64,000 bases of DNA, taken from an uncultured Acidobacteriota bacterium (lineage in GTDB: Bacteria > Acidobacteriota > Terriglobia > UBA7540). The position numbers and the translations under genes are program-made. Of the stretch, positions 31,608-61,035 are shown one piece after another. The DNA lies in the NCBI GenBank assembly GCA_963804995.1, contig CAWDSK010000003.1:1696203-1760202 (forward strand). The letters run 5' to 3'. Below the pieces are notes generated by a model that ran no database searches, was not told the DNA's origin, and saw only the letters and a program-made list of their open reading frames with translations. How positions within the stretch are numbered: position 1 is the stretch's first letter; each line of letters starts with the position of its first letter.

Positions 31608-31821
31608 CCTCGATCCTGCCCAGGCAGGGGCCGACGCGGTCGTTGCGGGGGTTGGGGCCACTGATTCGCGGATCAGCGGTCGCCCGCTTCTCTGCCATGT
31701 GTTTTCTTTCAGCTTCACCGAGGCCAGGGAGGAACTGTGTGCTAATTGTGTGCAGGATACTCGCTACCAATAATCTCGTTCCATTGAACTTCTCTGAAGA
31801 CCTTGTTAGCCTTCGTTGTCC

Positions 31822-44572: not shown

Positions 44573-44610
44573 CACAGAGTGCACGGAGTATCTCAGTGAC
44601 CTCTGTGTTA
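44570..44610. repeat. Inverted repeat / REP-like hairpin after cobA
   Basis: TAACACAGAG...CTCTGTGTTA. Confidence 0.5.
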
Positions 44611-44769
44611 AAGCTCTTCTGGACGCAGAGAAATGTTTGCCAAAAAAACAAGAATTCACGGTATGGCATTGCGGAATGCTGGCTACGCGTCCGCCATTGC
44701 ACGTGCGCGGTGATGAGCTGGCGCGCCTTCAGGTTATGACTCAGCCAAATTGTCGGACTCCCAAAAAAA

Positions 44770-44835
44770 TGTTCGGACATTAAGTTTCAAGGCAGATAAA
44801 AAACTCTTGTGTTGAAAATTAACGAGACTAACATT
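44770..44835 (+). promoter_or_regulatory. Conserved 66-bp promoter/operator module, copy A (upstream of dsrD-like gene)
   Basis: 56/66 identical to 57826-57891; TGTTCGGACA near-palindrome; TTGTGT-N16-TAACAT. Confidence 0.8.
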
Positions 44836-44874
44836 CTCCCTGGTTACAAGTTTGGATCGAGATGGAGAAAGAGC

Positions 44875-45123
44875 ATGGGCGAAATCGCGATTGAAACTTT
44901 GGCGGAAGAAATGTATCAAATGATCGCCGAGTGTGACGGGAAAAGGAATCTGAAGGCCGGCGATCTGACCAAGGGCGTGATGGCCAAGCATAGCGAAGGA
45001 ACTTGCGACAAAGAGGATTGCAAGAAGGCTATCCGCCTGCTCATTGATTCCGGCCGTTGCGTCTACAGCTACCTGGGGGGGTCTTACATCCAATTACCTC
45101 CGAAGCCGGACGCCGCCGCTTGA
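44875..45123 (+). CDS. dsrD: Divergent DsrD-like small winged-helix protein
   Basis: 82 aa; KKAIRLLIDSGRCVYSYLGGSY parallels the DsrD KK.L..LV....L.YWSSGST pattern; lies directly upstream of dsrN. Confidence 0.6.
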   Translation: MGEIAIETLAEEMYQMIAECDGKRNLKAGDLTKGVMAKHSEGTCDKEDCKKAIRLLIDSGRCVYSYLGGSYIQLPPKPDAAA

Positions 45124-45126
45124 TGC

Positions 45127-46563
45127 TTGTCCGGGTGGCCTGTGGCCAACGTGAATGCACTTAGCACAATGCCGCGCCTTGTCGTTGCGGGACTGAGCGG
45201 CGGGGCAGGTAAGACGCTTGTCTCTTTGGGACTTCTCCTGTCTGCCCAGCGCCGCGGGGTGAGGGTCGGGGCATTCAAAAAAGGTCCCGATTACATCGAC
45301 GCTGCCTGGTTGTCCTGGGCTGCCGGTAGCCCTGCCCACAATCTTGACACTTTCCTGATGGGGTATGACGGTGTCACTACCTCCTTCACATTGAATTCCC
45401 TCCCGGGTGGGCTGAATGTTATCGAAGGCAACCGTGGCCTCTACGATGGTTTTGACGCCCGGGGCACACACAGTACGGCCGAATTGGCCAAGGCGCTGGG
45501 AGCGCCCGTGGTGCTGGTGCTGGACTCGACCAAGGTCACTCGCACCGCCGCGGCCATGGTCCTGGGCTGTCAGCGGCTGGACCCCAGTGTCAACCTCGCC
45601 GGGGTGATTCTCAATCAAGTGTGCGGGCCACGGCACGAAAAGTTGTTGCGCGAGGCTATCGAAGTTGCCTGCGGAATCCCGGTGCTCGGTGCCCTCCCCA
45701 GAGTTCCCGCCACCTGCTTGCTTCCGGAACGCCATCTGGGTTTGGTGGTGCCGGAGGATTACCCGGGCCGGGAAGCTTTGCGCCGAACCCTGGAGGAACT
45801 GGTTGAGGGCCGGTTGGATTTCGAGAAGCTCTGGAGTCTCGCCTGCCAGGCTCCCCACCTTGACCCTCCCGCTCGGCCCCGCCCCTGCTTACCCGATGGG
45901 GGAGGGTTGAAGATCGGGTATCTTCGCGACTCCGCTTTCACCTTTTACTACCCGGAGAATCTGGATGCGCTCGGCGCTGCCGGCGCACAACTGGTTCCTA
46001 TCTCGGCACTCTTGGCGACCTCGCTGCCGGAAGATCTTGACGCGCTGTACATGGGCGGTGGTTTTCCGGAAACGCACGGAGAAGTCCTGGCGGCCAACCG
46101 GACTTTTCTCGAATCGGTTCGGTGTGCCGCGGAGCGAGGACTGCCCATTTATGCGGAATGCGGTGGCCTGATGCTCCTGGCCCGGGCGATCCTCTGGCAA
46201 GGACGGCGTCACCCGATGGCGGGAGTGCTCCCCATTGAAGTGCAGGTCTGCGCAAAACCTCAGGGCCACGGCTATACCGAACTCGCGGTGGACGCTGAAA
46301 ATGCTTTCTTCCCCTTGGGATCGATCCTCAGGGGCCACGAATTTCACTATTCGGCGATTCTGCCGCCTACCGTCTTCCCCAGCACCGCCTGCGAGGTGCG
46401 GCGCGGCGTGGGCTGCGGCGGCGGCCGTGACGGGATAGTGATCGGGAACCTTTGGGCCAGCTACACGCACTTACATGCGCTGGCCACTCCCGAGTGGGCG
46501 GCGGGATTAATCCAAGCCGCGCGACGCCATACGCTCCGCGGAGTGGGTGCGCATCACTCGTAA
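45127..46563 (+). CDS. dsrN: Cobyrinate a,c-diamide synthase-like siroheme amidase
   Basis: GGAGKT, FKKGPDYID, IEGNRGLYDG, ERHLGL, GGGFPE, YAECGG, GHEFHYS; dsr context. Start uncertain (45127-45169). Confidence 0.82.
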   Translation: MSGWPVANVNALSTMPRLVVAGLSGGAGKTLVSLGLLLSAQRRGVRVGAFKKGPDYIDAAWLSWAAGSPAHNLDTFLMGYDGVTTSFTLNSLPGGLNVIEGNRGLYDGFDARGTHSTAELAKALGAPVVLVLDSTKVTRTAAAMVLGCQRLDPSVNLAGVILNQVCGPRHEKLLREAIEVACGIPVLGALPRVPATCLLPERHLGLVVPEDYPGREALRRTLEELVEGRLDFEKLWSLACQAPHLDPPARPRPCLPDGGGLKIGYLRDSAFTFYYPENLDALGAAGAQLVPISALLATSLPEDLDALYMGGGFPETHGEVLAANRTFLESVRCAAERGLPIYAECGGLMLLARAILWQGRRHPMAGVLPIEVQVCAKPQGHGYTELAVDAENAFFPLGSILRGHEFHYSAILPPTVFPSTACEVRRGVGCGGGRDGIVIGNLWASYTHLHALATPEWAAGLIQAARRHTLRGVGAHHS

Positions 46564-46685
46564 ATGACGAACGCCTGGCCGCGCCAGTTCATGGGATTGC
46601 AATCTTTTTGAAGCGCATGATAATTGCCCTTGTTGATGCCCGAGCTTATGACGAAGAAAAAATACAGTTCTTATGGGAGGTATGA

Positions 46686-47963
46686 ATGAGCAACCTGATT
46701 TTTCCTCACGGAAGTAAAGAACTCAAACCCCTTCTCCTGGAAGGCGCAATGCTGGAGGAAGAAAGCAAGAAGGCGCAAGGCCTGAAAAAGGTCCCGATGA
46801 CCACTCGGGAAACAAGTGATCTCATCATGATGGGAATCGGAGCGTTCACGCCCCTGGATGGATTTATGGGCAAGGACGACTGGCAAGGCTGCTGTGACAC
46901 TTACAGCCTGCCCAGCCAGAAAGGTCTCTTCTGGCCCATACCCATCACCCTCTCGGCTGACCAGAACCTGGCTGATTTGATTGCGATCGGCGAGGAGGTG
47001 GCGCTCTGGGACGCGGAAACCGAGTCGATCATGGGCACCCTGAAAGTCACGGAGAAGTACACCATCGACAAAGACCATGAGTGCCAGCAGGTTTTCCGCA
47101 CGAAGGACGCGGCTCACCCGGGGGTTCAGAAAGTGATGGAGCAGGGACCGGTGAATCTGGCGGGCCCCGTGAAAGTCCTTTCGGAATCCTATTATCCGGA
47201 GATGTTCAAGGGCATTTACCAGCGGCCCGCCGAAGCCCGCAAGCTGTTTGCGGAGCGGGGTTGGAACACCGTAGCCGCTCTACAACTTCGCAACCCCATG
47301 CACGGCTCCCACGCCTACCTGGCCTGGGTCGCGATTGAGGTTTGCGATGGCGTCTATATTCACCAGCTTGTCGGCAAACTCAAACCCGGTGACATCCCGG
47401 CGGAAGTGCGGGTCAAGGCCATCGATGCCTTGGTCAACAAGTATTTTCGCAGGGATCGGGTGATTCAGGGCGGCTACCCCATGGAGATGCGCTACGCGGG
47501 GCCGCGCGAAGCTCTTCTGCACGCCGTGTTCCGCCAGAATTATGGTTGCACGCACTTGATTGTGGGTCGCGACCACGCCGGCGTGGGCGATTACTACGGA
47601 CCCTTCGATGCCCAGAAGATCTTCCATGAGATTCCTGCCGACGCCCTGCTCTTGCGGCCTTTGTGCATGGATTGGACCTTCTATTGCTACGAATGCGGGA
47701 GTATGGCGTCAATGAAGACCTGTCCGCACGAAAGCAAGGCCGTGATTGATGAAAATGGCAACTATAAGGGCGGAGCACGGCTGCTGCTTTCGGGAACTTT
47801 GCTCCGCAAATTGATGAGCGAGGGGAAACCGGTTCCGGCGGAATTCTCCAAGCCTGAGGTGATCGCAGTTCTGAAGGAGTACTACGACGGCCTCGAGGAG
47901 AAAGTGGAAGTGAAGTTGCACCGCGCCGCCACCGGGGAAAGCAAACCAGACAAAGCGGCGTGA
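46686..47963 (+). CDS. sat: Sulfate adenylyltransferase
   Basis: [47 protein letters not shown]. Confidence 0.96.
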
Positions 47964-48051
47964 TCCGGCGGTCGGTTCTGGGGTCGGCGAATTTTAGGGG
48001 GGATGGTTCTAGGTCCCTAGGTTTCGCCTACCGGAACTGGGAGCTGAGGTA

Positions 48052-49035
48052 ATGAACCATGGGGTCCCTTCGGGACCCCGACGGGATGTCTTAATGATGA
48101 TAACCATCTTTGTTTACTGTTGCCTTTATCTGGCGGCGTTGGTTTTCATCGTCGCCTGCGCGGTGCGGGCGGTTTACTACGCCCGCTTGCCGCTTCACTT
48201 GCGATGGGAACTTTACCCTGTGCCGCACGAGGAAGGCGAACGAGCAAAACACGGGGGATCCTATTTCGAGGTTACCAACTGGTGGGAAAAGCCAATTTCT
48301 TTCAACCTGCTGGGCGAATTGAGGGTGATGGTCCCGGAGATGCTTTTTCAAAAAGCTCTCTGGGAGTTTAACCGGAGCCTTTGGTTCCTCTCGTTCCCAT
48401 TTCATTCCGGTCTTTACCTGCTCATCGGCTCGACGGGTCTTCTGGGCATTCGCGCCTTACTCACCCTATGGGCCCCGCGCTTGATGTCGGGAGAATCCGG
48501 AATAGTCCTTCACTACGCGTGCGCCGTGGGTTGGCTGGTTGGGGCCGCGCTGGCCACAGGGGGAGCTCTCAGTCTGCTGGTTCGCCGCCTTATCGACGAA
48601 GATCTGAAACCGTATACGACGGCCGGAGATCTTTTTAACCTGCTCTTCTTCATCGTAACCCTGGGGTGCCTGGTCACGGGTTACCTGCTCCGGCCGGCGG
48701 GTTCACCGCCCGCGCTGGCGTTCGCGTCGGGCGTCCTTGCTTTTGACACGGCGCTGCGTTTTCCGCCCCTCCTGACCTTGGGACTGCTCTTGAGCGCCCT
48801 GTTAACCGCCTACATTCCGATGACCCACATGTCCCACTTCATTGCAAAGTATTTTACCTACCACGCCGTGCGCTGGGACGATCGCCCTAACTTGAAAGGC
48901 AGCGACTTGGCGAAGAGGGTAGCCGAGTATCTGACCTACCGGCCGCGGTGGACGGCTCCGCATGTGGGCGCGGACGGCGTCAAAACCTGGGCCGAAATCG
49001 CCTCCGCCAATCCCGCGCAGGGGGTCAAGAAATGA
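48052..49035 (+). CDS. dsrM: DsrM-like (NarI family) membrane b-type cytochrome
   Basis: LRWELYPVPHE, PFHSGLY, PMTHMSHF heme-ligand His residues; multiple TMs; coupled to dsrK. Confidence 0.8.
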   Translation: MNHGVPSGPRRDVLMMITIFVYCCLYLAALVFIVACAVRAVYYARLPLHLRWELYPVPHEEGERAKHGGSYFEVTNWWEKPISFNLLGELRVMVPEMLFQKALWEFNRSLWFLSFPFHSGLYLLIGSTGLLGIRALLTLWAPRLMSGESGIVLHYACAVGWLVGAALATGGALSLLVRRLIDEDLKPYTTAGDLFNLLFFIVTLGCLVTGYLLRPAGSPPALAFASGVLAFDTALRFPPLLTLGLLLSALLTAYIPMTHMSHFIAKYFTYHAVRWDDRPNLKGSDLAKRVAEYLTYRPRWTAPHVGADGVKTWAEIASANPAQGVKK

Positions 49036-50642
49036 AGAAAGAAAAAGTCCGCCTCTCCGACATGTCGCGGCTGGAGAAAAAACCACTGATCCATCTGGAA
49101 AACGCCGACTTGATGCCCTTGCCGCCGCCTCTTGACGACCCTTCCCAGGACCATAAGTGGACGCCGCTTTCCACGCAGGCGGAGGAGAGGTATGAATGCG
49201 GGCTGGATGACACCTGTGCGGTGAGTATTCCACAGCCCAAAACCCCCGAGGAAGAGCAGGAACTGGTCAGGAAATTCATCTCCGGGTTGGAAAAGCTATT
49301 CACCAAGGAGAACAACTGGACTTTCCTTCAGCCGCTCCTGCTTACCATGGAGCACTGCGCCAAATGCCAGACGTGTTCCGAGGCATGTCACATTTTTGAG
49401 GCTAGTGGACGGAACGAAATCTATCGCCCCACTTATCGTTCTGAAATCGTCCGCCGTCTCTATTTCAAGTACGTCAAGCACGGCGGCTTGGTATCCGCCT
49501 GGCAACATGGCGATGTCAAGCTGAACTGGCCGCTGGTGGCGAGGCTCATCGAACTTTCCTACCGTTGCAACTTATGCCGGCGCTGCGCGCAGACCTGCCC
49601 CATCGGTGCGGACAATGGGCTGGTGGCTCATGAGCTGCGCAAACTGTTCAGCCAGGAAATGGGCATCGCCGCCAAGGAAATTCATGACAACGGCTCGATG
49701 CTCCAGCTCAAGGTCGGCTCCTCCACGGGCATGAATGCGGAAGCCGTCAAAGACAACATCGCGTTCATCGACGAAGATATCAGCGAGAAGACCGGGGTGG
49801 AAGTAAAGACTCCCTGGGATGTCGAGGGCGCGGACATCCTTCTGATCCACAACGCCGGCGAAATTCTGGCTTGGCCGGAGAACCCCGGCGCCTTCGCCCT
49901 CGTCCTCAACGCTGCCGGGATTTCCTGGACCATGTCTTCGGAACTGGCGGGCTATGATTCCATCAACTATGGGCTCTGGTATGACGACGCCCAGTTTGCG
50001 CGCGTGGCGCTGAAGCACGCGGAGGCCGCCCGGAAACTCAAAGTCAAGAAAATCGTTCTGGGTGAGTGTGGTCATGCCCACAAGGCCCTTTCCGTGATTG
50101 CCGACCGCATTCTGGGTGGGGACTTGAATATTCCCAGGGAGAGTTCCATGACTCTCCTCCGGGAAATCGTGATGAGCGGGCGCTTGAAGTTCGATCCCAG
50201 CCGTAATGACTTTCCCGTGACGCTCCATGACCCTTGTAACGTGGTGCGGCTCATGGGCGTGGTGGAACCGCAACGCGAAGTCGTCCGAAAACTTTGCCCT
50301 CGGTTCAGAGAAATGGAACCCCACGGCGTGGATAATTACTGCTGCGGGGGAGGGAGCGGCTTCGCCATCATGAGCGGCAACAACTTTCCCGACTGGCGCT
50401 TCCATGTGTCGGGACGCAAAAAGCTGGAACAGATTCTCAACGCCTTCCAGGACTGCCTGGACCCCTCTATTCCCAAGTATATCTGCGCTCCTTGCAGCAA
50501 TTGCAAAGGACAGTTCCGCGATATGCTGGCTTATTATGACCTTTGGAAACAAAACTCGATTCTCTATGGGGGACTGGTCGAGTTGATTGTTAACGCCATG
50601 ACAGACGTGAAGCCCGGTTTCATCGAATGGGAGTGGCGGTGA
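49032..50642 (+). CDS. dsrK: DsrK-like Fe-S / CCG-domain protein
   Basis: CAKCQTCSEAC, CNLCRRCAQTC, GECGH, HDPCN, YCCGGGSG, CSNC. Confidence 0.85.
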   Translation: MKKEKVRLSDMSRLEKKPLIHLENADLMPLPPPLDDPSQDHKWTPLSTQAEERYECGLDDTCAVSIPQPKTPEEEQELVRKFISGLEKLFTKENNWTFLQPLLLTMEHCAKCQTCSEACHIFEASGRNEIYRPTYRSEIVRRLYFKYVKHGGLVSAWQHGDVKLNWPLVARLIELSYRCNLCRRCAQTCPIGADNGLVAHELRKLFSQEMGIAAKEIHDNGSMLQLKVGSSTGMNAEAVKDNIAFIDEDISEKTGVEVKTPWDVEGADILLIHNAGEILAWPENPGAFALVLNAAGISWTMSSELAGYDSINYGLWYDDAQFARVALKHAEAARKLKVKKIVLGECGHAHKALSVIADRILGGDLNIPRESSMTLLREIVMSGRLKFDPSRNDFPVTLHDPCNVVRLMGVVEPQREVVRKLCPRFREMEPHGVDNYCCGGGSGFAIMSGNNFPDWRFHVSGRKKLEQILNAFQDCLDPSIPKYICAPCSNCKGQFRDMLAYYDLWKQNSILYGGLVELIVNAMTDVKPGFIEWEWR

Positions 50643-51192
50643 AGGGTCGGCGGGCCGCCTGCGGGCCCTACGACGCGGGGTAAGGAGGTCGGACGCAGCA
50701 TCGCTCGCCTGCTCTATTTATGTAGCCCCGCCACCTTTCGCAAAGAAGTGGGACGTCCCACTTGATACCCTACCGGGCCCCTAGCGGCCGTAGTCCCACC
50801 AATTTTCGCAACTTCATGCGTTTTTTTCCTGTGACATTTGACTTGCGGCACCGCCGCGCTATGCTGTCTGCCTGGCCGATTTGAAACAGGTTCCCAGACG
50901 CAGGGTTTCGATCTCCCGGCCAAGGTTCGTTGAGCATTCTTGAAAGAGGCTGACACGCGGAACGGCCAATCCGGGGCAGTCTCGAAAGTCGTCATTGCCA
51001 CCAGATCAATTTCGCTGTGGCGCGCGATGGCGCCATTGCTTTTGATTCCTCTCTACCCGCGTGTCTCTTTTTTTACAAAGTGCCAGCATACCCGATGTGT
51101 TAAGGTTAGCCGTGAAGACTGAGGGGGAGCAACAAAAAAGCCGCCCCTGAGGTCTGAGTCAACTCCTGGACTTTGATTAAGGAGTGGCAGAC

Positions 51193-51651
51193 ATGGAGAC
51201 ACTCGAAAGTGTGATCGCAGAACATCCGTTTCTTAAGGGTTTGGAACCGCGCTACCTCGAATTTCTCGTGGGATGCGCATCCAACGTGCGCTTTGAACCT
51301 GGCCAATTTGTTTTCCTGGAGGGAGGGGAAGCCAACCAGTGCTATCTCATCCGACAGGGCAAGGTGACCCTGGAGATCGACGCTCCTCCACGCGGCACCA
51401 TCATAATCCAGACCCTTGGCCAGGGAGACGTCCTGGGTTGGTCGCAGATCTTTCCTCCTTATCGTTGGAAATTTTCCGCCAGGGCAGTCGAACTCACTCG
51501 GGCCATTGCCCTGGATGGTAAATGCCTTCGCGAAAAATCCGAGGAAGATCACGACCTTGGCTACGAGCTTCTGAAGCGGTTTGCGCGGGTGATCCAGGAA
51601 CGCCTCCAGGCAACGAGGCTGCAACTGATCAACCTCTACACGGTCGGATAA
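51193..51651 (+). CDS. Stand-alone cyclic-nucleotide-binding domain protein
   Basis: HPFLKGL, FLEGGEAN, YLIRQGKV, GDVLGWS; no HTH. Confidence 0.85.
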   Translation: METLESVIAEHPFLKGLEPRYLEFLVGCASNVRFEPGQFVFLEGGEANQCYLIRQGKVTLEIDAPPRGTIIIQTLGQGDVLGWSQIFPPYRWKFSARAVELTRAIALDGKCLREKSEEDHDLGYELLKRFARVIQERLQATRLQLINLYTVG

Positions 51652-51827
51652 TCGACCGAAAAACTACGAAGCCCTCCAAGTTTCTCACTCAGAACCATGG
51701 CAAAAGGGCGGGGAGGAGAGCTTTGTGTTTCCAGGGGGGCCCACCGTCGATTGCTACCACGGTGGGAGGGAGTCATTCCCTTCCATGGGGTACGAGGCGA
51801 ATCGAACTGAAGGACAGCGCCCCCTGA

Positions 51828-52217
51828 TTACACATGCCCGCCAGCGAGGCTGAAGAGCAAGACGGCGAGGACGATGAGAGTGATGACCACGTACAGGCGG
51901 TCGTGCTCCAACACAAAGGCGATGGCGGAGAAGGCCACGCGGGCTACGGGAGTGGCAATTAAGATCAGCAAGCCGAGTTGAATGATATTGCGACCGTGAA
52001 ACGAAGCGGAACCCCTGATAATCCCTGGAACGCTGCGCAACTCGAAGGGTTCTCCCACGAACCTTGCATATTGAGGCATCGCGCGGCCGTGGCGGAAGAG
52101 GAAGATGCTCCCTCCCAGTGCGACCACCGCCGCGGCCAGCAAGACACCGACGCGCAGCAGGATGGCAACGATATTTTCCACCCGTTGATCGGTCCAGGTG
52201 ACTGACGGCTGGTTCAT
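51828..52217 (-). CDS. DUF1634 membrane protein
   Basis: LLRVGV, QLGLLILIATPVARV; follows tauE. Confidence 0.82.
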   Translation of the reverse strand: MNQPSVTWTDQRVENIVAILLRVGVLLAAAVVALGGSIFLFRHGRAMPQYARFVGEPFELRSVPGIIRGSASFHGRNIIQLGLLILIATPVARVAFSAIAFVLEHDRLYVVITLIVLAVLLFSLAGGHV

Positions 52218-52218
52218 C

Positions 52219-53055
52219 TTAAAGCCTCCCTGTCATGCCGTGATAGATCATTTCGAAAGCCAGCACGGCGACCACAATGCCGAAAACCACCCGTAGCGAG
52301 GCGGTGCGGGTCCTGGCTAAAACTCGCGCCCCCAGCAACGCGCCCAGCGAAACGCCCAGCATAACGGGCATCGTAAGACCGGGATCGATGTACCCGCGCT
52401 GGAGATAGACCCCTGCGCTGGCGGCGGCCGTGACCCCGATCATGAAGTTGCTGGTGGTGGTGGAAACCTTGAAGGGGATGCGCATCGCCTGGTCCATGGC
52501 GATTACCTTGAGCGCTCCCGAGCCAATACCGAGGAGTCCGGAGAGCCCCCCCGCCACAAACATCAAGCTGAATCCGGCGGGGATGCCGCGCACGTGATAG
52601 CTCTGGATACCCTGGGTGGTGGGATAGGTGGAGCTCATCTTCAGCAGCTCCCCCAAACGGTTTGGGGGACCGTCGGAGCTCATCTTGGGCGCCGGGCGAG
52701 TCGAAGCATAGGCGGAGAAAAGGAGGACGATTCCGAAAATGATACTTATTGTGGAGGTCGGGAGCCGGGTGGCGACGGAAGCTCCCACCACCGCACCCAC
52801 CGTCGTGGCGATTTCCAAAAACATCCCGATGCGGATGTTGGTAAAACCTTCCTTGACATAGGCGGCTGCCGCCCCCGAAGAAGTGGCAATAACCGAAACC
52901 AGGGAGGCGCCGATAGCATAACGGATATCAACTCCAAATAACATCGTGAGAAGTGGCGTAATGACAATGCCGCCCCCAAGTCCGGTCAACGCTCCGAGAA
53001 AGCCGGCCGCTAACGATCCCAACCCGATCAAGAGGGTGTGTTCGAGGATGTTCAT
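52219..53055 (-). CDS. TauE/SafE family protein
   Basis: GALTGLGGG, GLLGIGSG, STTTSNFMIGVTAA. Confidence 0.9.
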   Translation of the reverse strand: MNILEHTLLIGLGSLAAGFLGALTGLGGGIVITPLLTMLFGVDIRYAIGASLVSVIATSSGAAAAYVKEGFTNIRIGMFLEIATTVGAVVGASVATRLPTSTISIIFGIVLLFSAYASTRPAPKMSSDGPPNRLGELLKMSSTYPTTQGIQSYHVRGIPAGFSLMFVAGGLSGLLGIGSGALKVIAMDQAMRIPFKVSTTTSNFMIGVTAAASAGVYLQRGYIDPGLTMPVMLGVSLGALLGARVLARTRTASLRVVFGIVVAVLAFEMIYHGMTGRL

Positions 53056-53076
53056 TCAGTCGATTAACCCGCCATC

Positions 53077-53778
53077 CTATATCCTGGGCGGGACCTTTCC
53101 AGTCCTCAAAATCGCGCTGAGTTCATCCCGTATGGCAACTTGAATCGGGAAAGCCTGCACTTTCGCCACGACAGCGTCGATAGGGTAGGAAAATGACTTT
53201 AGCTCAATTTTGCCGTCTTCCCAAACTGCATAACAAGCCTCGGGCCGTCCATTTTTCGGCTGCCCGAGACTGCCCGGATTGACCACCACGCGGGAGCCGA
53301 TGGAACGCACGAAGGGAAGGTGAGTATGACCGACAAGAATCACATCGGCGTTCACGCTATTGAGCTCGGTAAGCCAACGGGGGGATCCAGCATCGCAATA
53401 ACCATAAAGGGGGTCCGAGGGAACCGCATGGCAAAGATAAAAGCGCGTGTCCCAGCAACGCCTTTCTGCATTCCAAGGCAGATCGCGAAGGAAATGTTTG
53501 TATCCGAAGCCCAACACCGTGTCGGTGAACCCTCGCGTCACCTCCGCCATTTCTCGGAATCGGTCCGAGCAGCGTGGATCCTGATTGAACCCGATCGCGT
53601 AATCATGATTCCCGCAAACGAAAACGGCCGCCTTCGACCTGACAAAGTCAATCACCGCCGCCGGTTCGGGACCGTAATTCACCAAGTCCCCCAAAACCCA
53701 CAATTCATCGTAGGTCTCTTCGATTGACGACAGGGCATCGTAGTTACCGTGAATGTCGGAAACGATCAGAATCCTCAT
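53077..53778 (-). CDS. Metallophosphoesterase (YfcE/calcineurin-like)
   Basis: SDIHGN, GDLVNYG, GNHD, GHTH, NPGSLGQP. Confidence 0.9.
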   Translation of the reverse strand: MRILIVSDIHGNYDALSSIEETYDELWVLGDLVNYGPEPAAVIDFVRSKAAVFVCGNHDYAIGFNQDPRCSDRFREMAEVTRGFTDTVLGFGYKHFLRDLPWNAERRCWDTRFYLCHAVPSDPLYGYCDAGSPRWLTELNSVNADVILVGHTHLPFVRSIGSRVVVNPGSLGQPKNGRPEACYAVWEDGKIELKSFSYPIDAVVAKVQAFPIQVAIRDELSAILRTGKVPPRI

Positions 53779-53916
53779 GCTCCCCATCCGCGAAGGGACA
53801 ACACGATCTCCTCAAAAACCAGCACATGCCGAAATTGGATTCTATTCTGTGGTAACCCCGAAGTACGGAGCGCAACCTGCTATTGGTTTGCTCGGGGCTG
53901 TCTGGCAGTGTGCTTC

Positions 53917-55020
53917 CTACCTTTTCACTCGCGCCTGCAACTGGGCCTTTGCCTCCTGAGCCTTTCCCCGTCGTGCTGATTGCAAACAAGTACGGACTCG
54001 TTCCGCCTGGTCCTGCGCCGCCCGGGCGCGCGCCACCTGCCCAACTTGTTCGAAGCCGGTTCCAGCCTCCTTAAAGCAGATTTGTGCGCTTCGCAAGTAC
54101 TTCTGGGGATTGGGGTCATCGAGCGCCAGGCGGAGAAATGTGCTGCCCCGGTTAAACTGAGTCACCGCGTAATCGCAAGGGAAACTCACCCGGCTACGAA
54201 AGCGGAGAGCGCGGTCAAAATGGCGAAGGGCACGACGCAAGTTTTTGCCCGTCTCCGTGGAGTCTATGGAGGGAATGGAGACGTAGGCGTTGCCCAGGTT
54301 GTTGTGCAACGCAGCGTTCTGAGGCGGGAACCGCGATGGGGTGAAAACCTGAAGAGCCTGCCGGTAGCAAAGGATGGCTTTCCGGACGTTGACAGCCCTG
54401 TCGCCGGAAGACAACTCCCGGTAGGCGGTACCCAGGTTCTCCTGCGTCGCCGCGTAGCGCACAGGATCCCTCTCCTTGGTCCTTATTTGCAGGGCTTTCT
54501 GATAGTGCGACACTGCCTCTTCCCACTTGCTGGGCGACGTTTCCTCCGACAATTCGCAGTAGGAATTTCCAAGGTTGAACTCCTCTCGCGCCCAAGCTTC
54601 CATGTCCCCAACACCAAGGTAGGTTCGCGCCGCATCTTTGAAACAGCTTATGGCCGCCTGCAAGCGCACGGCGAGCGATTCCTGGCTGGAGATCAGCCAG
54701 GTGTTCCCCATCGCGCTGAGGATTTGCGCACGCTCCTTGGGCTGTTCAGATGGGCTCACGAGCGTGAGTGCAGAGCGCAAATAAGTCAGCGCAATCTCCG
54801 CAGACGTTTGCAAGTGAAGACGACAGCCCCCACTGCAACAGACTCCCAGTTGGAAATGAATCGCGTAATTGTTTGGCTCTGCTGCAACTGCCTCCACCAA
54901 AGTCGCAATACATGCTTCGCACTGATGCTCCTGGCATTGCCTACTGGCTCTCAGAAGCCGGGAGTTTTGGCCAACCGGCGTGGGAGGCATCAGAGCCCAT
55001 AGGTCATTCTCCCTTTGCAT
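53917..55020 (-). CDS. TPR-repeat protein
   Basis: Repeats NLGNSY / NLGTAY / NNLGNAY with A..YQKAL. Confidence 0.8.
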   Translation of the reverse strand: MQRENDLWALMPPTPVGQNSRLLRASRQCQEHQCEACIATLVEAVAAEPNNYAIHFQLGVCCSGGCRLHLQTSAEIALTYLRSALTLVSPSEQPKERAQILSAMGNTWLISSQESLAVRLQAAISCFKDAARTYLGVGDMEAWAREEFNLGNSYCELSEETSPSKWEEAVSHYQKALQIRTKERDPVRYAATQENLGTAYRELSSGDRAVNVRKAILCYRQALQVFTPSRFPPQNAALHNNLGNAYVSIPSIDSTETGKNLRRALRHFDRALRFRSRVSFPCDYAVTQFNRGSTFLRLALDDPNPQKYLRSAQICFKEAGTGFEQVGQVARARAAQDQAERVRTCLQSARRGKAQEAKAQLQARVKR

Positions 55021-55250
55021 GGGTTTTCACTCCGTCCCTATCCCTTTGTTTGGATCACCATATCCAGAACGCAGTTTTCAGCTCTCGCTGTCATCTCTTC
55101 CCTTCAGGCATTGGGAAGACCGCCGCCACGAGCCAAGGACTTATCAATCTTCGATCCCATCTTACGTTCATGAAGTCTCGTGCGGGAACATTATACGACC
55201 TGGTCTTTCTCCTACAAGACACGGACTTCCCGTTGCACCCGCGGGACAGA

Positions 55251-57194
55251 CTAGAAATTAGCGAAGAGGCTGCTCTGTACCCGAAATTGGGTTGCAGTTC
55301 CCCGCGGAAGAGGAACATAGAAATGACGAGCTGGATCATTGGGACTGATCTCATCTTGTATATACAGGATGTTTTGCCATTGTAGAAACCTCGCCAGACC
55401 AACGTCAAACCGGAAGGAATGGGTCCGGATGTTGACGCCTGAATTCGTGCCCATTTGGGTGTCTGCGAATGCAGAAACCATGGAATTGGCGTCTTTGACG
55501 CCGTAAAAGTAGAGGAATCTCACATCTCCGGCTTTGGTGATTTGGCCAGCATTGAAAGTCACCATCCAAGCGTTTCGCAGAAAGCTTGTGCCGAAGTTTC
55601 GGCTGGCTTGCAAGTCAAGGAATATGGGGAATTCCTCACCGTGAACCCTCAGGCCTTCCTTGGTCACACGGTAAGCCAAATGGCCGATCTGAAAATGGCC
55701 TGCGGTGTAAATTCCCCCGCCCGGAAGGGTCGTGGCGGTCCCAGTTCCGGTCAGCGGGCCTGCTACAGTGACCCCCAGTTCATTATTGACGATTATGGGA
55801 TAACCGGCGTTGGTTTCCCCAAGAGCGATTTGGTTGGCGTTCCGATATAGTAAGAAATTGCTAAACAGATACTGGGACCATCCAGGTTTGATCCTTCCTA
55901 TCACGAACACCCCTTCGTCAAAGAGGTCTGCCGATCGGACGTTCTCGCCCGGTTTGTATCCAGCCTGAAGGTAAATACAGGCGACCGGGGGATTTGCAGC
56001 CGCACATTGCCTGGCCGTGGGCAACACCTGAATGTTGGGGTTCGTAAGAACATACTGGCCAGCCCTGAAATCAATTCGGGTTATGCCGAGGGAGTTGTCT
56101 CCCGGTGAGGTTCCGACGGATTCTTGGGAGCCGTTGAACCTCACGTTATTACTCCACATGAAGCGAGTGAAATCCTGAAAGACCTCCGGCATCTTCCCTA
56201 CCTGAAAGTTCAGGTTCGAGTTCGGGTGATAGTCTAACCATGCTTCGCTCAAGAAGATGGGCCCTTTGACCGCGCCCCCCCCAAAGTCCGTGCTGTCCGT
56301 CAATGGATTCTCAAAATTCCCCGAGCCAAGTTGAAAATGAACATCTAGTTGCGGATCGATCCCTTTGTCAAAGTTCAGCCGAGCCCGGTAACGGCCCCGC
56401 ATGTCCTGCTGAGTGCCAGCTACAGCATTTGCTGACCGGAAAATCCCATCGGCTCGCACGCGAAAATCTCCACTAAACCTGAAACCCCCAATACCCTTGG
56501 AGATTCCTTCCACCTGCTTGCTGAGGCTTTCTAATCTTGTGGTGTAGGGTTGGGTCTGGTCCGGCGGCGTCTGAGCGGAGCTCTGCGGCGACGAGCGGGG
56601 GGGATTCGCGCCGGCGGCTGGAGCAAGACTGGCCATGGCCGCCGGCTTGTCCGGCTGGAAATTCGCCAGACCGGGCTGGTGCGGGACATCAAGAACTCCG
56701 GGGGCGGCCCCTGGCGGATTTGCGACCGTCTCTGTCGTCCGCACCACAGCCAGCTCCACGTGGGGAGCCGCAGTCTGGGCGTGAGGGGGGGCCACGCTGG
56801 GTTCAGTTGAAACCTCTATTGACCGGTTTAGTGATTTCTTCAACTCATCCAGTGCGACGATGAGCTTGGCGATCTGTTCTTGTTGGAGACCCAGCAACTT
56901 TTCCTGATGCGCGAGTTGTTCCCGTAGTGAAATAATGTCGTCGGCCCTGGCCTCATTCCGTGGAGCCGGCCGGGATGGTTTGGCGCCCAATGAATTCCCA
57001 CGCTTGGGACCAAGCCGCGAACATTTCTTTTTCGCGAGTTCTGAACTCGGAGTTCGCGCCTCGGTCGTGCTGCTGAGGTTAGGATTCGGAGCATTGTCTG
57101 GGGCACAATATAAACACAGACTGCCTGCCAGGACGATGGCGCAGACCAAGCATAAAGACAAACTTATTGGATTCGAACACCGTGATGTTTTCAT
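55251..57194 (-). CDS. Putative porin with N-terminal coiled coil
   Basis: Signal peptide, coiled coil, FSGDFRVR, RYRARL beta-barrel start, C-terminal Phe. Confidence 0.7.
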   Translation of the reverse strand: MKTSRCSNPISLSLCLVCAIVLAGSLCLYCAPDNAPNPNLSSTTEARTPSSELAKKKCSRLGPKRGNSLGAKPSRPAPRNEARADDIISLREQLAHQEKLLGLQQEQIAKLIVALDELKKSLNRSIEVSTEPSVAPPHAQTAAPHVELAVVRTTETVANPPGAAPGVLDVPHQPGLANFQPDKPAAMASLAPAAGANPPRSSPQSSAQTPPDQTQPYTTRLESLSKQVEGISKGIGGFRFSGDFRVRADGIFRSANAVAGTQQDMRGRYRARLNFDKGIDPQLDVHFQLGSGNFENPLTDSTDFGGGAVKGPIFLSEAWLDYHPNSNLNFQVGKMPEVFQDFTRFMWSNNVRFNGSQESVGTSPGDNSLGITRIDFRAGQYVLTNPNIQVLPTARQCAAANPPVACIYLQAGYKPGENVRSADLFDEGVFVIGRIKPGWSQYLFSNFLLYRNANQIALGETNAGYPIIVNNELGVTVAGPLTGTGTATTLPGGGIYTAGHFQIGHLAYRVTKEGLRVHGEEFPIFLDLQASRNFGTSFLRNAWMVTFNAGQITKAGDVRFLYFYGVKDANSMVSAFADTQMGTNSGVNIRTHSFRFDVGLARFLQWQNILYIQDEISPNDPARHFYVPLPRGTATQFRVQSSLFANF

Positions 57195-57825
57195 GTGAAT
57201 TCTCTCTTCAACAATTAACAGCCTGGCTACCTGCCGTTGGCCTGCCGGATGACTTCGCCCGGCCTCGCGGCACTTCGGCTTAGAGTTAGAAGTGTTTCTT
57301 CGGCACAGTTCCCGCTGCGCCTCGTATTTCACTTGGTGCGAGAGAAATCCGATTTTGCAGCGACACGCGAATACCTGCCCCTTCGAGAAGGGGGAGCATA
57401 TTCGTTCATTAAGCTAGTCCGTTGATCTGACGAAAGGGCATTGATTGTCGGCGGCAGGTCACGCATTTTCGACCGATAAATTAAGGGAGTAACTGGAGGC
57501 ACTCTTCCACTGGCACATCCGACGCGGGTGAAAGGCTTCCTTTGGACGCGGCCCGTCGGCGGACCTTTTTCGCCACACCCTGAGACGTTCCGAAACCTTA
57601 ACAAGTATATTAAGCTCTGTTTCTGTATCATTCCTCTGCATATTAGTATGCATCCGCAGCCGATCTCGCAAACCTTCACTTGCAAGAGGCCCTCGCACGA
57701 CGGGGAAAACTATCGCGCCTTGCGGACCGCTCGTCAAGCGGCATTGCGAGGGTTGACAGGAATAATCCAGAATGGTTCGGACATTTAGAGCCGGGCCCCG
57801 ACAAAACTGCCAAACGTCAATATTT

Positions 57826-57891
57826 TGTTCGGACATTAAGGATCAAGGCAGGCAAAAACATCTTGCGTTGACGATTAACGAGATTAACATT
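57826..57891 (+). promoter_or_regulatory. Conserved 66-bp promoter/operator module, copy B (upstream of marR-aprBA)
   Basis: 56/66 identical to 44770-44835; TTGCGT-N16-TAACAT; an extra GGTTCGGACA at 57774-57783. Confidence 0.8.
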
Positions 57892-57936
57892 TGACCCAGT
57901 TAAGCAGTTGGAGCAAGGAGGCTGCTCGGCCAGTGT

Positions 57937-58581
57937 ATGGAAAGCAACAGTGATACCGCGCTCCACGAAGAGGTCACTCCCCAGTTGAACAACGAGTTTC
58001 TGAGTAGTGCACGCGTCTTTGCATGGTCGGTTCGCGAGGTCATTGAGCGGACTGTACTGCGGGAAGTGGCGGGCAAGAATTTCACCTTTTCCCAACTAAA
58101 GCTTCTCTACCTCGTAGCCCATACGGACACCCTCAACATTAGCGACGCAGCGACCTTTCTGGGCGTCAGCCCCGCGGCCGCCAGCAAGACCGTGGACAAG
58201 CTGGTGCGACGCCGGCTGCTGCGTCGCGCCGAAACACAGCAAGACCGGCGCACCAGCCACCTCTCCTTAACCGAAACCAGCCGCAAGCTAATGGACGCTT
58301 ACATCGCTGCCCGGGATGAGAGGGCACGGGCTGTTTTTTCCCAGTTTTCCGCCGACGAATTGCGGCGCACCTCCGAAGTCCTAGACCGCTTGGCGGGGGC
58401 CATCACCAGCAGTGGTGCCGATCCGAACGCGGTATGCATGCAATGCGAGATTTACTTTCGCGATGTATGCCGCTTTCAGAAATACGGTCAGCGGAATTGT
58501 TTTTACCAGCATCATCAGAAGGAAGAGCAAGACCGTGCCAGCACGTGCACGGATGTTGTTAGTGAGCAAAAGGGGGACTAA
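57937..58581 (+). CDS. MarR-family regulator with C-terminal Cx2Cx7Cx9C motif
   Basis: TFSQLKLL, ISDAATFLGVSPAAASKTVDKL, DRR..LSLT wHTH; CMQC..C..C tail; stop overlaps the aprB ATG (TAATG). Confidence 0.88.
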   Translation: MESNSDTALHEEVTPQLNNEFLSSARVFAWSVREVIERTVLREVAGKNFTFSQLKLLYLVAHTDTLNISDAATFLGVSPAAASKTVDKLVRRRLLRRAETQQDRRTSHLSLTETSRKLMDAYIAARDERARAVFSQFSADELRRTSEVLDRLAGAITSSGADPNAVCMQCEIYFRDVCRFQKYGQRNCFYQHHQKEEQDRASTCTDVVSEQKGD

Positions 58582-59021
58582 TGCCGAGTTACGTCAATCC
58601 TGAAAAATGCGATGGCTGCAAGGCCCTGGATAAAACCGCCTGCCAGTACATTTGTCCCAATGACCTGATGGTCTTGGATAAAGACAAGATGAAGGCCTAC
58701 AACCGCGATGTATCGATGTGTTGGGAGTGTTACAACTGCGTCAAGATCTGCCCCACACAGGCTGTTGAAATACGCGGTTATGCCGATTTCGTCCCGCTGG
58801 GGGCTTCCGCTACGCCCATGCGCTCCACGGATTCTATCCTGTGGACGGTGAAGTTTCGTAACGGAACAATCAAACGCTTCAAATTCCCGATCCGCACCAC
58901 TGCCGAAGGTACCGCAGTACCGGACGGCGGCTTTGAGACTAAGGGAGGCTTAGACGCGCCTGATTTATTCACCGAACCGGCGTCGTTGGGTCTGCCCGAA
59001 GTTTTTACCCTGAGACGATAG
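58581..59021 (+). CDS. aprB: Adenylylsulfate reductase beta subunit
   Basis: MPSYVNPEKCDGC, CWECYNCVKICP, RGYADF, KRFKFPIRTT. Confidence 0.97.
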   Translation: MPSYVNPEKCDGCKALDKTACQYICPNDLMVLDKDKMKAYNRDVSMCWECYNCVKICPTQAVEIRGYADFVPLGASATPMRSTDSILWTVKFRNGTIKRFKFPIRTTAEGTAVPDGGFETKGGLDAPDLFTEPASLGLPEVFTLRR

Positions 59022-59037
59022 GAAGGGGAGGAAACCG

Positions 59038-60966
59038 ATGGCCAATTTTGAAACCGTGACAGTAGAAACCGACTTGCTCATTCTAGGCGGCGGCATGGCC
59101 GCCTGCGGAGCGGCGGTGGAAGCTGCCTTTTGGGCCAAGCAGCACGGCTTGAAGGTAGCGCTGGTTGATAAAGCCGCGGTAGACCGATCCGGCGCCGTGG
59201 CGATGGGGCTGTCCGCGATTAACCAGTACGTGGGTCTAAGGGATGGCGCCAATACCGTGAAGGACTATGTAGATTACGTGCGCAGTGATCTGATGGGCAT
59301 CACCCGGGAAGATTTGGTGGCCAACATCGCCCGGCACGTGGACTCCACCGTCCACTTGTTTGAGAAGTGGGGCCTGCCGATCTGGAAGGATGAGAAAGGC
59401 GCCTACGTTCATGAGGGCCGGTGGCAGCTCATGATCAACGGCGAATCCTACAAGGTTGTCGTGGCGGAAGCTGCCAAGAACGCCTTGCTGCAAAGCGGTG
59501 TTGGCCAGATCTTTGAGCGCGTATTCATCGTCGGGCCGCTCATGGATGGCGAGCGCTGTGCTGGGGCGGTGGGGTTCTCGGTCCGCGAGGACAAGTTCTA
59601 CGTGTTCAAAGCCAAGGCTACGTTGGTAGCCATGGGCGGCGCCGTGCACGTCTTCAAACCCCGGAGTTCCGGCGAAGGCATGGGCCGCGCCTGGTACCCA
59701 CCCTGGAACTCGGGCTCCTCGGCCTACTTCACCCTTCGGGCCGGGGCGGAGATGACATGCCAGGAAGTGCGCTTCATTCCGGTCCGTTTCAAGGACGCGT
59801 ACGGTCCGGTGGGTGCTTGGTTCCTGCTCTTCAAATCCCGGGCCACGAACTCTCAGGGGGGCGACTATATGGTGGAGCGCCGGCCGGAGCTGGCCAAGTG
59901 GGGGCCCTATGGCCGCGTCAAGCCCGTTCCCGCCAATCTGCGCAACTACCTCGGCATGCTGGATATTATGGACGGCAAGGGGCCGATCAGTATGCGGACC
60001 GAGGAGGCCCTCCAGAAAATCGCCGACGCCTACAAGGACGATCCTAAAGCCTACAAGAAAAAGATGAAGGATCTCGAATCCGAGGCCTGGGAAGACTTCT
60101 TGGACATGACGATCTCACAAGCAATCCTCTGGGCTTCCACCAACGTTCAGCCCGAGGAGCGAAGTTCGGAGATCGCCGCGGCGGAGCCTTACTTCATCGG
60201 CTCTCACTCCGGAGCGTCCGGCGCCTGGGTGAGTGGTCCGGAAGACTTGCAAACTGATGAAACCCGCACGGACTATTTCTGGGGTTACGCGAACATGTCC
60301 ACCGTGAAGGGCCTGTTTTGTGCCGGTGACGCCTCCGGTGCTTCCAGCCATAAGTTCTCCTCGGGTTCCCACGCCGAGGGGCGCATCGCTGCCAAAGCCG
60401 CCGTCAAGTTCGTGGTGGAAAACAACACCATGCCGGGGGTCGATGCGGCAATGTTGGAAAGCCTGAAAGCTGAAATCCTTCAACCTCTGGATCTTTACGA
60501 AGAGCAGAAGAACGCCACCACCGATCCGGAGATCAACCCGAACTACATCAAGCCCCGCATGTTCATGTTCCGGCTCCAGAAGATCATGGACGAGTACGCG
60601 GGTGGTATCACGGCCCAATTCATCACCAATGGCCCCATGTTGACCAGGGCTTTGGAGTTGTTGGGCATGCTTCGTGAGGACTCCCATAAGCTGGCAGCTT
60701 CGAACTTACATGAACTGATGCGCTGCTGGGAGAACACTCACCGCATGTGGCAGGCGGAAGCGCATGTCCGCACCATGTTGTTCCGTGAGGAGACGCGCTG
60801 GCCCGGGTACTACTTCCGCGCCGACAAGCCTGCGCTCAACGAAGAGAAGTGGCACGTCTTTGCCAATTGCCGGTTCGATCCCCAGAAGGACGCGTGGGAG
60901 ACGCGAACCCGGCCCATGAAGCACGTTTTCCCGCAGCCTCAAGAGCACGAAATGTTGGGCGGTTAG
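59038..60966 (+). CDS. aprA: Adenylylsulfate reductase alpha subunit
   Basis: RSGAVAMGLSAIN, WQLMINGESYK, RFKDAYGPVGAW, HKFSSGSHAEG, REETRWPG. Confidence 0.97.
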   Translation: MANFETVTVETDLLILGGGMAACGAAVEAAFWAKQHGLKVALVDKAAVDRSGAVAMGLSAINQYVGLRDGANTVKDYVDYVRSDLMGITREDLVANIARHVDSTVHLFEKWGLPIWKDEKGAYVHEGRWQLMINGESYKVVVAEAAKNALLQSGVGQIFERVFIVGPLMDGERCAGAVGFSVREDKFYVFKAKATLVAMGGAVHVFKPRSSGEGMGRAWYPPWNSGSSAYFTLRAGAEMTCQEVRFIPVRFKDAYGPVGAWFLLFKSRATNSQGGDYMVERRPELAKWGPYGRVKPVPANLRNYLGMLDIMDGKGPISMRTEEALQKIADAYKDDPKAYKKKMKDLESEAWEDFLDMTISQAILWASTNVQPEERSSEIAAAEPYFIGSHSGASGAWVSGPEDLQTDETRTDYFWGYANMSTVKGLFCAGDASGASSHKFSSGSHAEGRIAAKAAVKFVVENNTMPGVDAAMLESLKAEILQPLDLYEEQKNATTDPEINPNYIKPRMFMFRLQKIMDEYAGGITAQFITNGPMLTRALELLGMLREDSHKLAASNLHELMRCWENTHRMWQAEAHVRTMLFREETRWPGYYFRADKPALNEEKWHVFANCRFDPQKDAWETRTRPMKHVFPQPQEHEMLGG

Positions 60967-60980
60967 GGCCGCGCATTTCG

Positions 60981-61020
60981 AGGGGGGAGATTCCCTTAGA
61001 ACTGTGGGATTCTCCCCCCT
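60981..61020 (+). other. Strong stem-loop between aprA and downstream genes
   Basis: AGGGGGGAGATTCCC-N10-GGGATTCTCCCCCCT, 15-bp stem with one mismatch; no U-tract. Confidence 0.6.
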
Positions 61021-61035
61021 CACCGGTTGAATGTT

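Follow-up and report, generated by a model that had tools for sequence, protein, structure and literature searches.

The 64,000-nucleotide window analysed here, taken from contig CAWDSK010000003.1 of an uncultured Acidobacteriota bacterium (assembly GCA_963804995.1), contains a 66-bp module that occurs twice, once ahead of a transcription unit that begins with a dsrD-like gene and once ahead of a unit that begins with a gene for a MarR-family regulator, both for sulfate respiration. We propose, with a probability of about 0.6, that the module is a promoter that was duplicated onto both halves of the pathway, and that the MarR protein, which has four cysteines in its C-terminal tail, represses it at two adjacent palindromes and is released by a change in redox state. 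The module is built of conserved sequence blocks at fixed spacing, and its palindromes co-occur with the same MarR subfamily in unrelated operons.

The two copies, located at 44770-44835 and 57826-57891, were identical at 56 of 66 positions in an ungapped alignment, and the likeness between them stretched to 92 nt at 76%. In the source genome (G000; 7.55 Mb, 92% complete, with contigs labelled C3 and C6), the third-best ungapped match in a genome-wide scan was 36/66, and nhmmer recovered the two copies with E values of 1.3e-18 and 2.4e-17, with the next match at 8.6. These results agree with the alignment described in the initial annotation, and the genome-wide copy count of two disposes of the possibility, raised there, that the module is a dispersed repeat at unrelated loci. 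The further partial copies of the upstream motif reported at 44751 and 57774 were both present, and the genes downstream of the module had been correctly named:

44875..45123, + strand: dsrD-like gene, the first of unit 1; its homologue immediately follows dsrB in 9 of 23 loci
45127..50642, + strand: dsrN (cobB-like), sat, and dsrM- and dsrK-like paralogues, assigned with NCBIfam and Pfam
57937..58581, + strand: MarR-family regulator with C-terminal C167-x2-C170-x7-C178-x9-C188, assigned from the Pfam MarR match and the invariant cysteines, and the likely cognate repressor given the operator co-occurrence
58581..64000, + strand: aprB, aprA, a small Cys-rich open reading frame (ORF; 61036-61311), a CxxCxxCC gene, qmoA, and qmoB (cut by the contig end)

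The product of the dsrD-like ORF had no match to Pfam DsrD and none in the PDB, and its homologue lay ahead of dsrN in 13 of the 23 loci; the annotated DsrD of the relative CO124 resembled it, as judged by eye. In relatives, the run after qmoB goes on as qmoC-dsrAB-x-dsrL-dsrC-dsrT-dsrMKJOP, and the genes from qmoC to dsrP are on the same strand as marR-apr-qmo, separated by no more than short gaps or small genes, so that the marR-apr copy of the module probably drives about 20 kb of genes. No module copy was found ahead of dsrAB, dsrC or dsrL, where matches would, according to the initial annotation, have supported its reading. Because these genes follow marR-apr-qmo in the relatives, their lack of a module of their own fits one long operon and does not argue against the regulon.

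A search of 101 genomes, 12 of which contained a full aprA, located the module ahead of both dsrD and marR-aprB in G005, G017 and G018 of the same genus and in G112, G113 and G118 of a sister genus, which is to say in all six relatives for which both regions were read. A second marR gene in G005 was also preceded by the module, resulting in a total of 15 copies from 7 genomes and two genera, those of G000 included. This set was collected through gene orthology and all 15 of its marR and dsrD promoters carried the module, contrary to the lack of conservation at orthologous promoters that the initial annotation had named as grounds for rejection. The regions read for G040, G058, G088, G072, G035, G055, G049 and G032 showed no copy of the module, and none was seen ahead of eight Bryobacterales-type marR genes. 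On metagenome contigs, a 19-base pattern matched 40 loci, of which 23 were ahead of marR, 9 ahead of dsrD, 3 after cysG and 5 unrelated; the 3 loci after cysG correspond to the dsrD-type position near a contig end, and 35 of the 40 were thus at sulfate-respiration genes. After removal of the 5 unrelated loci and of near-duplicates, 36 of 50 copies were left in a larger set, in which the 19 positions fixed by the query bias those columns in the metagenome part. The dsrD homologue was preceded by a tandem operator (described below) in 3 of 23 loci, all from the two module-bearing genera, and the dsrD copy probably arose by promoter duplication when dsrD-dsrN-sat became a separate unit.

Several other features were seen at these loci. 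In G005 (L034:10048-15770), a dsrK-like/ferredoxin/membrane cluster replaces dsrM2K2 and is followed by the second marR gene, whose module copy has degenerate operators. In G017 (L033), an insertion of about 7 kb with transposon-like genes, identified by eye, lies between tauE and a TPR gene, between both promoters. Two of the unrelated metagenome matches, L112 and L133, were identical around the pattern and diverged just after it, and their shared stretch is possibly the end of a mobile element. G035, G049 and G055 (L048, L045 and L044), which have no MarR, share another motif, TGTCCTGTC..AG(T/A)..CG(G/A)ACT, 15 to 45 bases ahead of aprB.

The core promoter elements, numbered from predicted starts at 44842 and 57898, were assigned as follows:

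44798..44803, + strand: A-tract at predicted -44..-39, an UP-element-like position
57854..57858, + strand: A-tract
44807..44812, + strand: predicted -35 hexamer TTGTGT
57863..57868, + strand: predicted -35 hexamer TTGCGT
44830..44835, + strand: predicted -10 hexamer AACATT, 17-bp spacer, predicted start near 44842
57886..57891, + strand: predicted -10 hexamer AACATT, predicted start near 57898

The A-tract, which was likened to the UP-element consensus, had A at -44..-40 in 92% to 100% of the copies (three of these positions being query-fixed in the metagenome set), and TTG at -35 was present in 15/15 copies found through orthology and in 36/36 overall (query-fixed in the metagenome copies). 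An xAxxxT hexamer at 17-bp spacing occurred in 15/15 and 36/36 copies, whereas TAxxxT at 16-bp spacing occurred in 11/15 and exact TAACAT in only 7/15. These counts suggest that the -10 element is probably AACATT, one base after TAACAT and without the first T. From the -35/-10 pair initially proposed, the TTG hexamer is thus retained, while TAACAT with its N16 spacer gives way to the hexamer at 17 bp. Taken together, the elements almost certainly constitute a real, if predicted, sigma-70-type promoter. RNA contigs of relatives from two studies gave no cover ahead of 57905, with the first listed piece starting at 57920 and showing no loose end; these contigs, which share a small proportion of words with the window and come without a DNA control, provide a weak hint of a start near 57898. 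At dsrD the cover was patchy, one contig ran into a longer, unlike leader, and no start was mapped.

Overlapping the -10 element and the predicted start are two palindromic sites:

44819..44831, + strand: predicted operator 1, TTAAC-GAG-ACTAA
57875..57887, + strand: predicted operator 1, TTAAC-GAG-ATTAA
44835..44847, + strand: predicted operator 2, TCTCC-CTG-GTTAC, with a degenerate left half
57891..57903, + strand: predicted operator 2, TTGAC-CCA-GTTAA

Operator 1 (-23..-11) matched TTAAY-N3-RYTAA in 13/15 and 32/36 copies. In operator 2 (-7..+6), situated 16 bp further on, the right half GTTA was kept in 14/15 copies and the left half in 5/15, and an additional right half-site (TTRA) was present 16 bp ahead of operator 1. 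The operator is thus likely a tandem of TTAAC-N3-GTTAA palindromes placed 16 bp apart. The near-palindrome GTTGA-N3-TTAAC, which had been put forward as the regulatory unit, was exact in only 4/15 copies, compared with 13/15 for the site one register downstream, and represents the junction between neighbouring half-sites.

The MarR protein was the sole DNA-binding regulator found to be conserved across these loci, and its association with the palindromes was examined outside the module. A symmetric 13-bp matrix was trained on the module sites only, and the 200 bases ahead of 32 module-free MarR homologues (30% to 75% identity) were scored. Single sites scored above dinucleotide shuffles at p <= 0.05 in 23 of the 32 promoters, and the partner site peaked at +/-16 bp, with a mean of +2.6 vs -3.0 to -10.4 at other offsets. 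With the tandem cut-off set at 8.1, the 99th percentile of 1112 upstream windows in G000 (maximum 11.6), tandem scores of at least 8.1 were obtained ahead of 23 of the 32 homologues, but in no case ahead of 9 ordinary MarR genes or of 6 aprB genes that have no MarR gene beside them. A further eight loci (a ninth duplicated an earlier one) yielded 4 positives, including all 3 that were apr-linked. A reverse matrix, built from 8 non-apr promoters, ranked the marR-apr tandem first and the dsrD tandem third among 7.55 million positions, and in the whole of G000 only 4 tandem matches exceeded the cut-off, with the two module sites on top.

The neighbours of the positive loci were aprBA, NiFe hydrogenase and hyp genes, an Hdr/Fe-hydrogenase cluster, and ferredoxin with 2-oxoacid:ferredoxin oxidoreductase, while several tandem-negative loci had unrelated or unassigned neighbours. 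Furthermore, the hydrogenase-linked paralogues in G001, G002 and G120 were accompanied by a second tandem (scores 23.5, 24.8 and 19.2) located kilobases upstream, ahead of HdrA-like and hydrogenase genes, and thereby repeat the layout of own gene plus target outside sulfate respiration. In apr-linked promoters the -10 element coincides with the point where the two sites meet; in most others, inspected by eye, it adjoins the first site. We consider it likely that the MarR protein binds these predicted palindromes, and sites over the -10 element and the start would imply repression. In a Bryobacterales genome (L097:3063-3180), two moderate tandem scores (10.5 and 11.7) were also noted upstream of sat, where they possibly provide a separate sat control.

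The window MarR matched Pfam PF12802 and PF01047 above cut-off, and fold matches confirmed the MarR fold. Residues up to about 150 form an ordinary MarR fold, and the conserved cysteines lie at 167-188 of 214. The C-x2-C-x7-C-x9-C tail was invariant in 25/25 close and 13/13 diverse homologues. A search of representatives clustered at 50% identity gave 150 matches at E <= 1e-30, and of the 123 cluster representatives that are at least 180 amino acids long, 109 had the four-cysteine motif; in an alignment of 111 sequences, which were chosen for a full tail, the four cysteines were the only invariant columns. For the tail no solved-structure match was found, and an Atlas search gave only scores of 0.82 or lower. 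A comparison with the Fnr-like protein described below showed no likeness. The gene is patchily distributed, occurring in 19 of 133 family genomes and 9 of 401 phylum genomes. The neighbours identified for the subfamily, namely Apr, NiFe hydrogenase/Hyp, Hdr/Fe-hydrogenase and 2-oxoacid:ferredoxin oxidoreductase, are anaerobic iron-sulfur (Fe-S) enzymes. Whether the protein senses redox, oxygen or cluster state we judge to be an even bet.

According to the mechanism that we propose, a single promoter, likely duplicated, would bring the two halves of the sulfate-respiration pathway under the same control. Binding by two or three MarR dimers may follow a 16-bp period, at the half-site at -39..-27 and at -23..-11 and -7..+6, and dimers over the -10 element and the start would block RNA polymerase. 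MarR would presumably also repress its own gene. The tail may hold an Fe-S cluster or a redox-sensitive metal. Since the enzymes identified as targets are oxygen-sensitive Fe-S proteins required in anoxia, it should be the oxidised or cluster-free form that binds, and cluster-loaded or reduced MarR might then release the operators; these steps, the cofactor of the tail included, are put forward more tentatively than the binding itself. The outcome would be that Fe-S-rich, oxygen-sensitive enzymes are made only under suitable conditions. In this genus and one sister genus, where the -10 element is without its first T, phased boxes at -69, and often at -101 or -121, likely recruit an activator as a second input. 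A wider generalization, which we hold to be less likely than not, is that the subfamily with its C-terminal four-cysteine Fe-S sensor acts as an inverse FNR that represses in air and releases in anoxia, serving facultative Acidobacteriota as the master switch of the whole sulfate-respiration pathway, with paralogues doing likewise for hydrogenase, Hdr and 2-oxoacid oxidoreductase operons.

Expression data for the relative CO124, a metagenome-assembled genome, were taken from supplementary files 4 and 6 of PMC10564751, which were searched by term. Gene 1372 of CO124 is annotated as MarR, has the same cysteine spacing and is located directly ahead of aprB (PMC10564751). Its reads per kilobase per million were 0, 1.2, 0 and 0 in oxic and 21.7, 33.9, 22.7 and 22.4 in anoxic samples, corresponding to a log2 fold change of -7.10 with an adjusted P value of 4.6e-11, and the gene was thus nearly silent under oxygen (PMC10564751). 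Among the 19 genes after marR, from aprB to beyond dsrP, 18 changed in the same direction with an adjusted P value below 0.01, and dsrD on another contig had a log2 fold change of -6.87 (PMC10564751). The upstream cysG gene also fell under oxygen, with a log2 fold change of -4.1 (PMC10564751). The MarR-led operon is hence switched by oxygen in a relative, and the data do not assign the switching to MarR.

Upstream of the core promoter, the following boxes were recognized:

44773..44789, + strand: upstream box I, predicted -69..-53, TCGGACATTAAG.., dsrD promoter
57829..57845, + strand: upstream box I, marR-apr promoter
44741..44757, + strand: weak upstream 17-bp box, predicted -101..-85, TCAGCCAAATTGTCGGA, score 8.3 with a matrix from a different promoter
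57777..57793, + strand: upstream box III, predicted -121..-105, 52 bp ahead of box I

The sequence TCGGACATTAAG was exact at -69..-58, at a fixed distance to the -35 element, in 12/15 copies, compared with 7/15 for TGTTCGGACA, the near-palindrome previously described here; the element is instead the left half of a 17-mer of the GGACA-W3-TGTCC type. The position -101..-85 is also used in several other dsrD copies, and a second GGACAT-type box near -121 was present in 8/15 and 15/36 copies. A Crp/Fnr-family gene with an N-terminal C-x2-C-x8-C motif, located in G000 at C6:2153839-2154582 (L205:7839-8582) and matched in 37 of 133 family genomes, has a promoter that conserves TTGTGAC-N4-GTCACAA, a GGACA-W3-type box and a TTGAT half-site; its product is a candidate oxygen sensor for the lineage. 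With a matrix from this promoter, the -69 position was the best or second-best site in 14/15 module copies, with more sites around -101 and -121. The boxes agree on a palindromic consensus of 17 bp, TCGGACA-W3-TGTCCGA, from whose right half the module copies have diverged. By eye, a good box copy abuts the -35 element of hydrogenase-operon promoters in G001 and G002. A weak -10 element and the helical phasing of the boxes (32 and 52 bp) make an activator the natural reading, and the odds that the box recruits one are about even.

The box's odd-centred CA-W3-TG core resembles that of NtrC/Fis/RegA-type sites. In G000, the box was not enriched relative to shuffles before genes or tRNAs and no site was found ahead of rRNA, so that a Fis-like global regulon found no support. 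Among 23 HTH_8 matches in G000 no RegA-sized frame was found. Small stand-alone Fis-like ORFs such as that at C6:1922493 do occur, and they and enhancer-binding proteins are candidates for the second factor; no site consensus could be drawn from the PrrA paper in the parts consulted (PMC4263372). Other candidates were set aside. The response regulator at 30975 had no recognised DNA-binding domain. DsrD is reported to bind DNA non-specifically and was dropped as a binder of the module (PMC8794893). The box match ahead of hypC (G000 C3:952582) was coding, with the same letters within an ORF in G005 and G017, and five single TCGGACAYTAA matches outside the dsr loci that were read looked coding or unrelated, with the one at G018 L210 less clear. 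It was also noted that, directly downstream of the dsr cluster, an operon resembling those for 2-oxoacid:ferredoxin oxidoreductase is preceded by two or three GGACA-W3-TGTCC-like boxes in L036 (G005, joined stretch 65724-65823) and L039 (G018).

A number of observations weigh against repression of a duplicated promoter by a redox-released MarR. Neither region received a + strand call from a consensus scanner for strong sigma-70 promoters (9/12), a result that is in keeping with a weak promoter and lends it no support. A strong tandem was missing from 9/32 and 4/8 homologue promoters, the apr-linked ones of G040 and G058 among them; the positives cannot be counted as independent, since several are near-identical and about 16 are left after de-duplication; and the 8 sites of the reverse matrix had been chosen with the first matrix, so that the reverse test is not fully independent. 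The AlphaFold model places the cysteine tail below a predicted local distance difference test score of 50 and thus yields no cluster site, and four cysteines would suit zinc equally to Fe-S. Of 21 genomes from across the class that carry dsrD or aprA, only 5 matched this MarR and 16 gave no match, and it is therefore not the general switch. The upstream box has neither genome-wide enrichment nor a cognate regulator found in G000. The genes qmoC, dsrAB, dsrC, dsrT and dsrMKJOP are absent from the G000 assembly, where the window ends together with contig C3, so that the segment from qmoC to dsrP is known from relatives only. Finally, the CO124 data come without a view of the CO124 promoter sequence, and an anaerobic activator could also give both the near-zero oxic marR transcript and the drop in cysG, without oxygen sensing by MarR.

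The strongest competing explanation, to which we give perhaps one chance in a handful, keeps MarR at the operators and lets it sense another cue, such as zinc or another metal, sulfide or persulfide, or a metabolite, as a feedback brake, with the oxic/anoxic switch coming from an activator at the upstream box or an Fnr-like protein. The operator half-site is the same as that of the zinc sensors AdcR and ZitR, the CO124 marR transcript rises together with its targets, and the Crp/Fnr-family gene, conserved in G000 and 36 of 132 family genomes, has the same kind of box in its own promoter. However, the marR-apr promoters of Bryobacteraceae have a full TAxxxT -10 element and for the most part lack the upstream box, and CO124, a member of this family, nevertheless switches about 100-fold; the module has no conserved box of the CRP/FNR type, and the identified neighbours of the MarR subfamily are anaerobic Fe-S enzymes and not metal transporters. 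Binding of the palindromes by an unlinked global anaerobic regulator, with marR carrying the site merely as leader of anaerobic operons, appears improbable. It would account for the finding that all identified tandem contexts are anaerobic operons and that some marR promoters are without the site, but the site was absent from aprB promoters without an adjacent MarR (0/6), it tracks MarR down to 30% identity, and the 4 above-cut-off matches in G000, headed by the module sites, are unlike a global regulon.

Slightly less probable still is that the likeness of the two copies is a mere trace of promoter duplication and that the conserved letters are RNA polymerase contacts, without a shared regulator. 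The dsrD copy is confined to two genera, dsrD elsewhere being mostly inside an operon; the third copy in G005 travelled with the duplicated marR; and the pair in G000 is unusually alike, at 85% identity vs 62% to 83% in the six relatives. Against this, 41 of 78 module columns are at least 90% conserved despite a divergence of 15% to 38% between copies (19 positions being query-fixed in the metagenome part), the conserved blocks take in the spacer and the +2..+5 positions, which polymerase does not read, and the same palindromes were found in promoters otherwise without likeness. Duplication thus probably explains the origin of the module and not its maintenance. A structured RNA, a dispersed repeat or a sigma-54 enhancer/promoter is very unlikely: the 23 HTH_8 matches in G000 and the CA-W3-TG core of the upstream box, as in NtrC/Fis-type enhancers, are set against the presence of only two module copies, the absence of Rfam matches within 44000-60000, and the lack of a common position for GG-N10-GC (at most 5 of 36 copies), on which grounds a sigma-54 promoter was rejected. 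Repression by the four-cysteine MarR at the paired palindromes is the reading that we retain. The two-input regulon of the initial annotation survives in part: the promoter is shared, an upstream site is present and the repressor-type site is tied to MarR by co-occurrence, whereas its component parts had been mis-parsed.

Elsewhere in the window, the small Cys-rich ORF and the CxxCxxCC gene between aprA and qmoA (61036-61311 and 61307-62146) are kept in most relatives. A short imperfect inverted repeat after cysG (44569-44632), which had 20 BLAST matches in G000 and many look-alikes in RNA contigs, resembles repetitive extragenic palindromic (REP) elements and is perhaps a terminator that insulates the dsrD promoter. 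Stand-alone genes for cyclic nucleotide-binding domains without a DNA-binding domain are located at 42180-42701 (- strand) and 51184-51651 (+ strand); in relatives, several paralogues turn up repeatedly near the dsr loci, and one of these is divergent from the dsrD promoter. A tandem duplication with a spacing of about 3.4 kb (300 nt at 97%) covers 8815-15124 and includes paired REP-like hairpins at 11577-11683 and 15005-15115, and a transposase-like fragment with weak IS3/IS481 matches was identified at 31816-32607.

Our literature search, to which subscription journals and regulon databases were external, found no work on this promoter, its operator or the MarR subfamily, in line with the earlier suggestion that the system is probably undescribed. 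The results supply a candidate protein, a predicted 13-bp operator, two target promoters and a putative sensor motif that lend themselves to work in a laboratory host, with no need to culture the organism. As a sequence marker, the operator may also point to uncultured sulfate reducers that likely close the pathway in air, and the MarR subfamily is broad, with its 150 clusters. Switching between sulfate and oxygen respiration has been reported for some Acidobacteriota, in a paper that names no regulator in the parts consulted (PMC10564751).

Among known systems, the gene clusters of peatland Acidobacteria have the same gene set and order, including the dsrD-dsrN pair and dsrM2K2 paralogues (PMC6018796; for CO124 also PMC10564751). 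The main text of the former contains the word "promoter" 0 times and "regulator" once (suyR), with no description of a promoter or regulator of the cluster (PMC6018796), and the main text of the latter contains neither "MarR" nor "regulat" (0 each; PMC10564751). In Desulfovibrio, Rex is described as a redox-responsive repressor that acts on sat, qmo and, by prediction, apr and dsr, with effects under 2-fold (PMC4045070). Its redox-repressor role is similar, but protein family and site differ from those of the module. No Rex domain was matched in G000 (92% complete) and no Rex box, in the form TTGTGAA-N4-TTCACAA given in the initial annotation, occurred in the window at up to 3 mismatches, which upholds the view that the module is not under Rex control. 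The zinc repressors AdcR and ZitR of streptococci and lactococci are described as binding TTAACYRGTTAA pairs over -35/-10, and share with our system the MarR fold, the TTAAC/GTTAA half-sites and paired palindromes over core promoter elements (PMC6372160). Their spacer is 2 bp (PMC6372160), whereas that of the module is 3 bp, and the module has three sites at a 16-bp period. Moreover, the window MarR scored 35.3 bits against the AdcR family, for which the cut-off is 175, and, unlike AdcR and ZitR, has a C-terminal four-cysteine tail and anaerobic respiration targets. ChlR, a cyanobacterial MarR-type oxygen sensor with a [4Fe-4S] cluster, is comparable in its MarR fold, conserved cysteines and link to low-oxygen genes (PMC4500134). 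It is, however, described as an activator whose [4Fe-4S] form binds DNA, with proposed ligands in an N-terminal Cys-X4-6-Cys-Pro motif (PMC4500134), whereas the cysteines of the window MarR are C-terminal (167-188) and the sites over the -10 element and the start imply repression, the opposite logic. The gene cluster, the control by Rex in Desulfovibrio and the layout of MarR repression were known, and the putative sensor tail and the proposed regulon appear to be undescribed.

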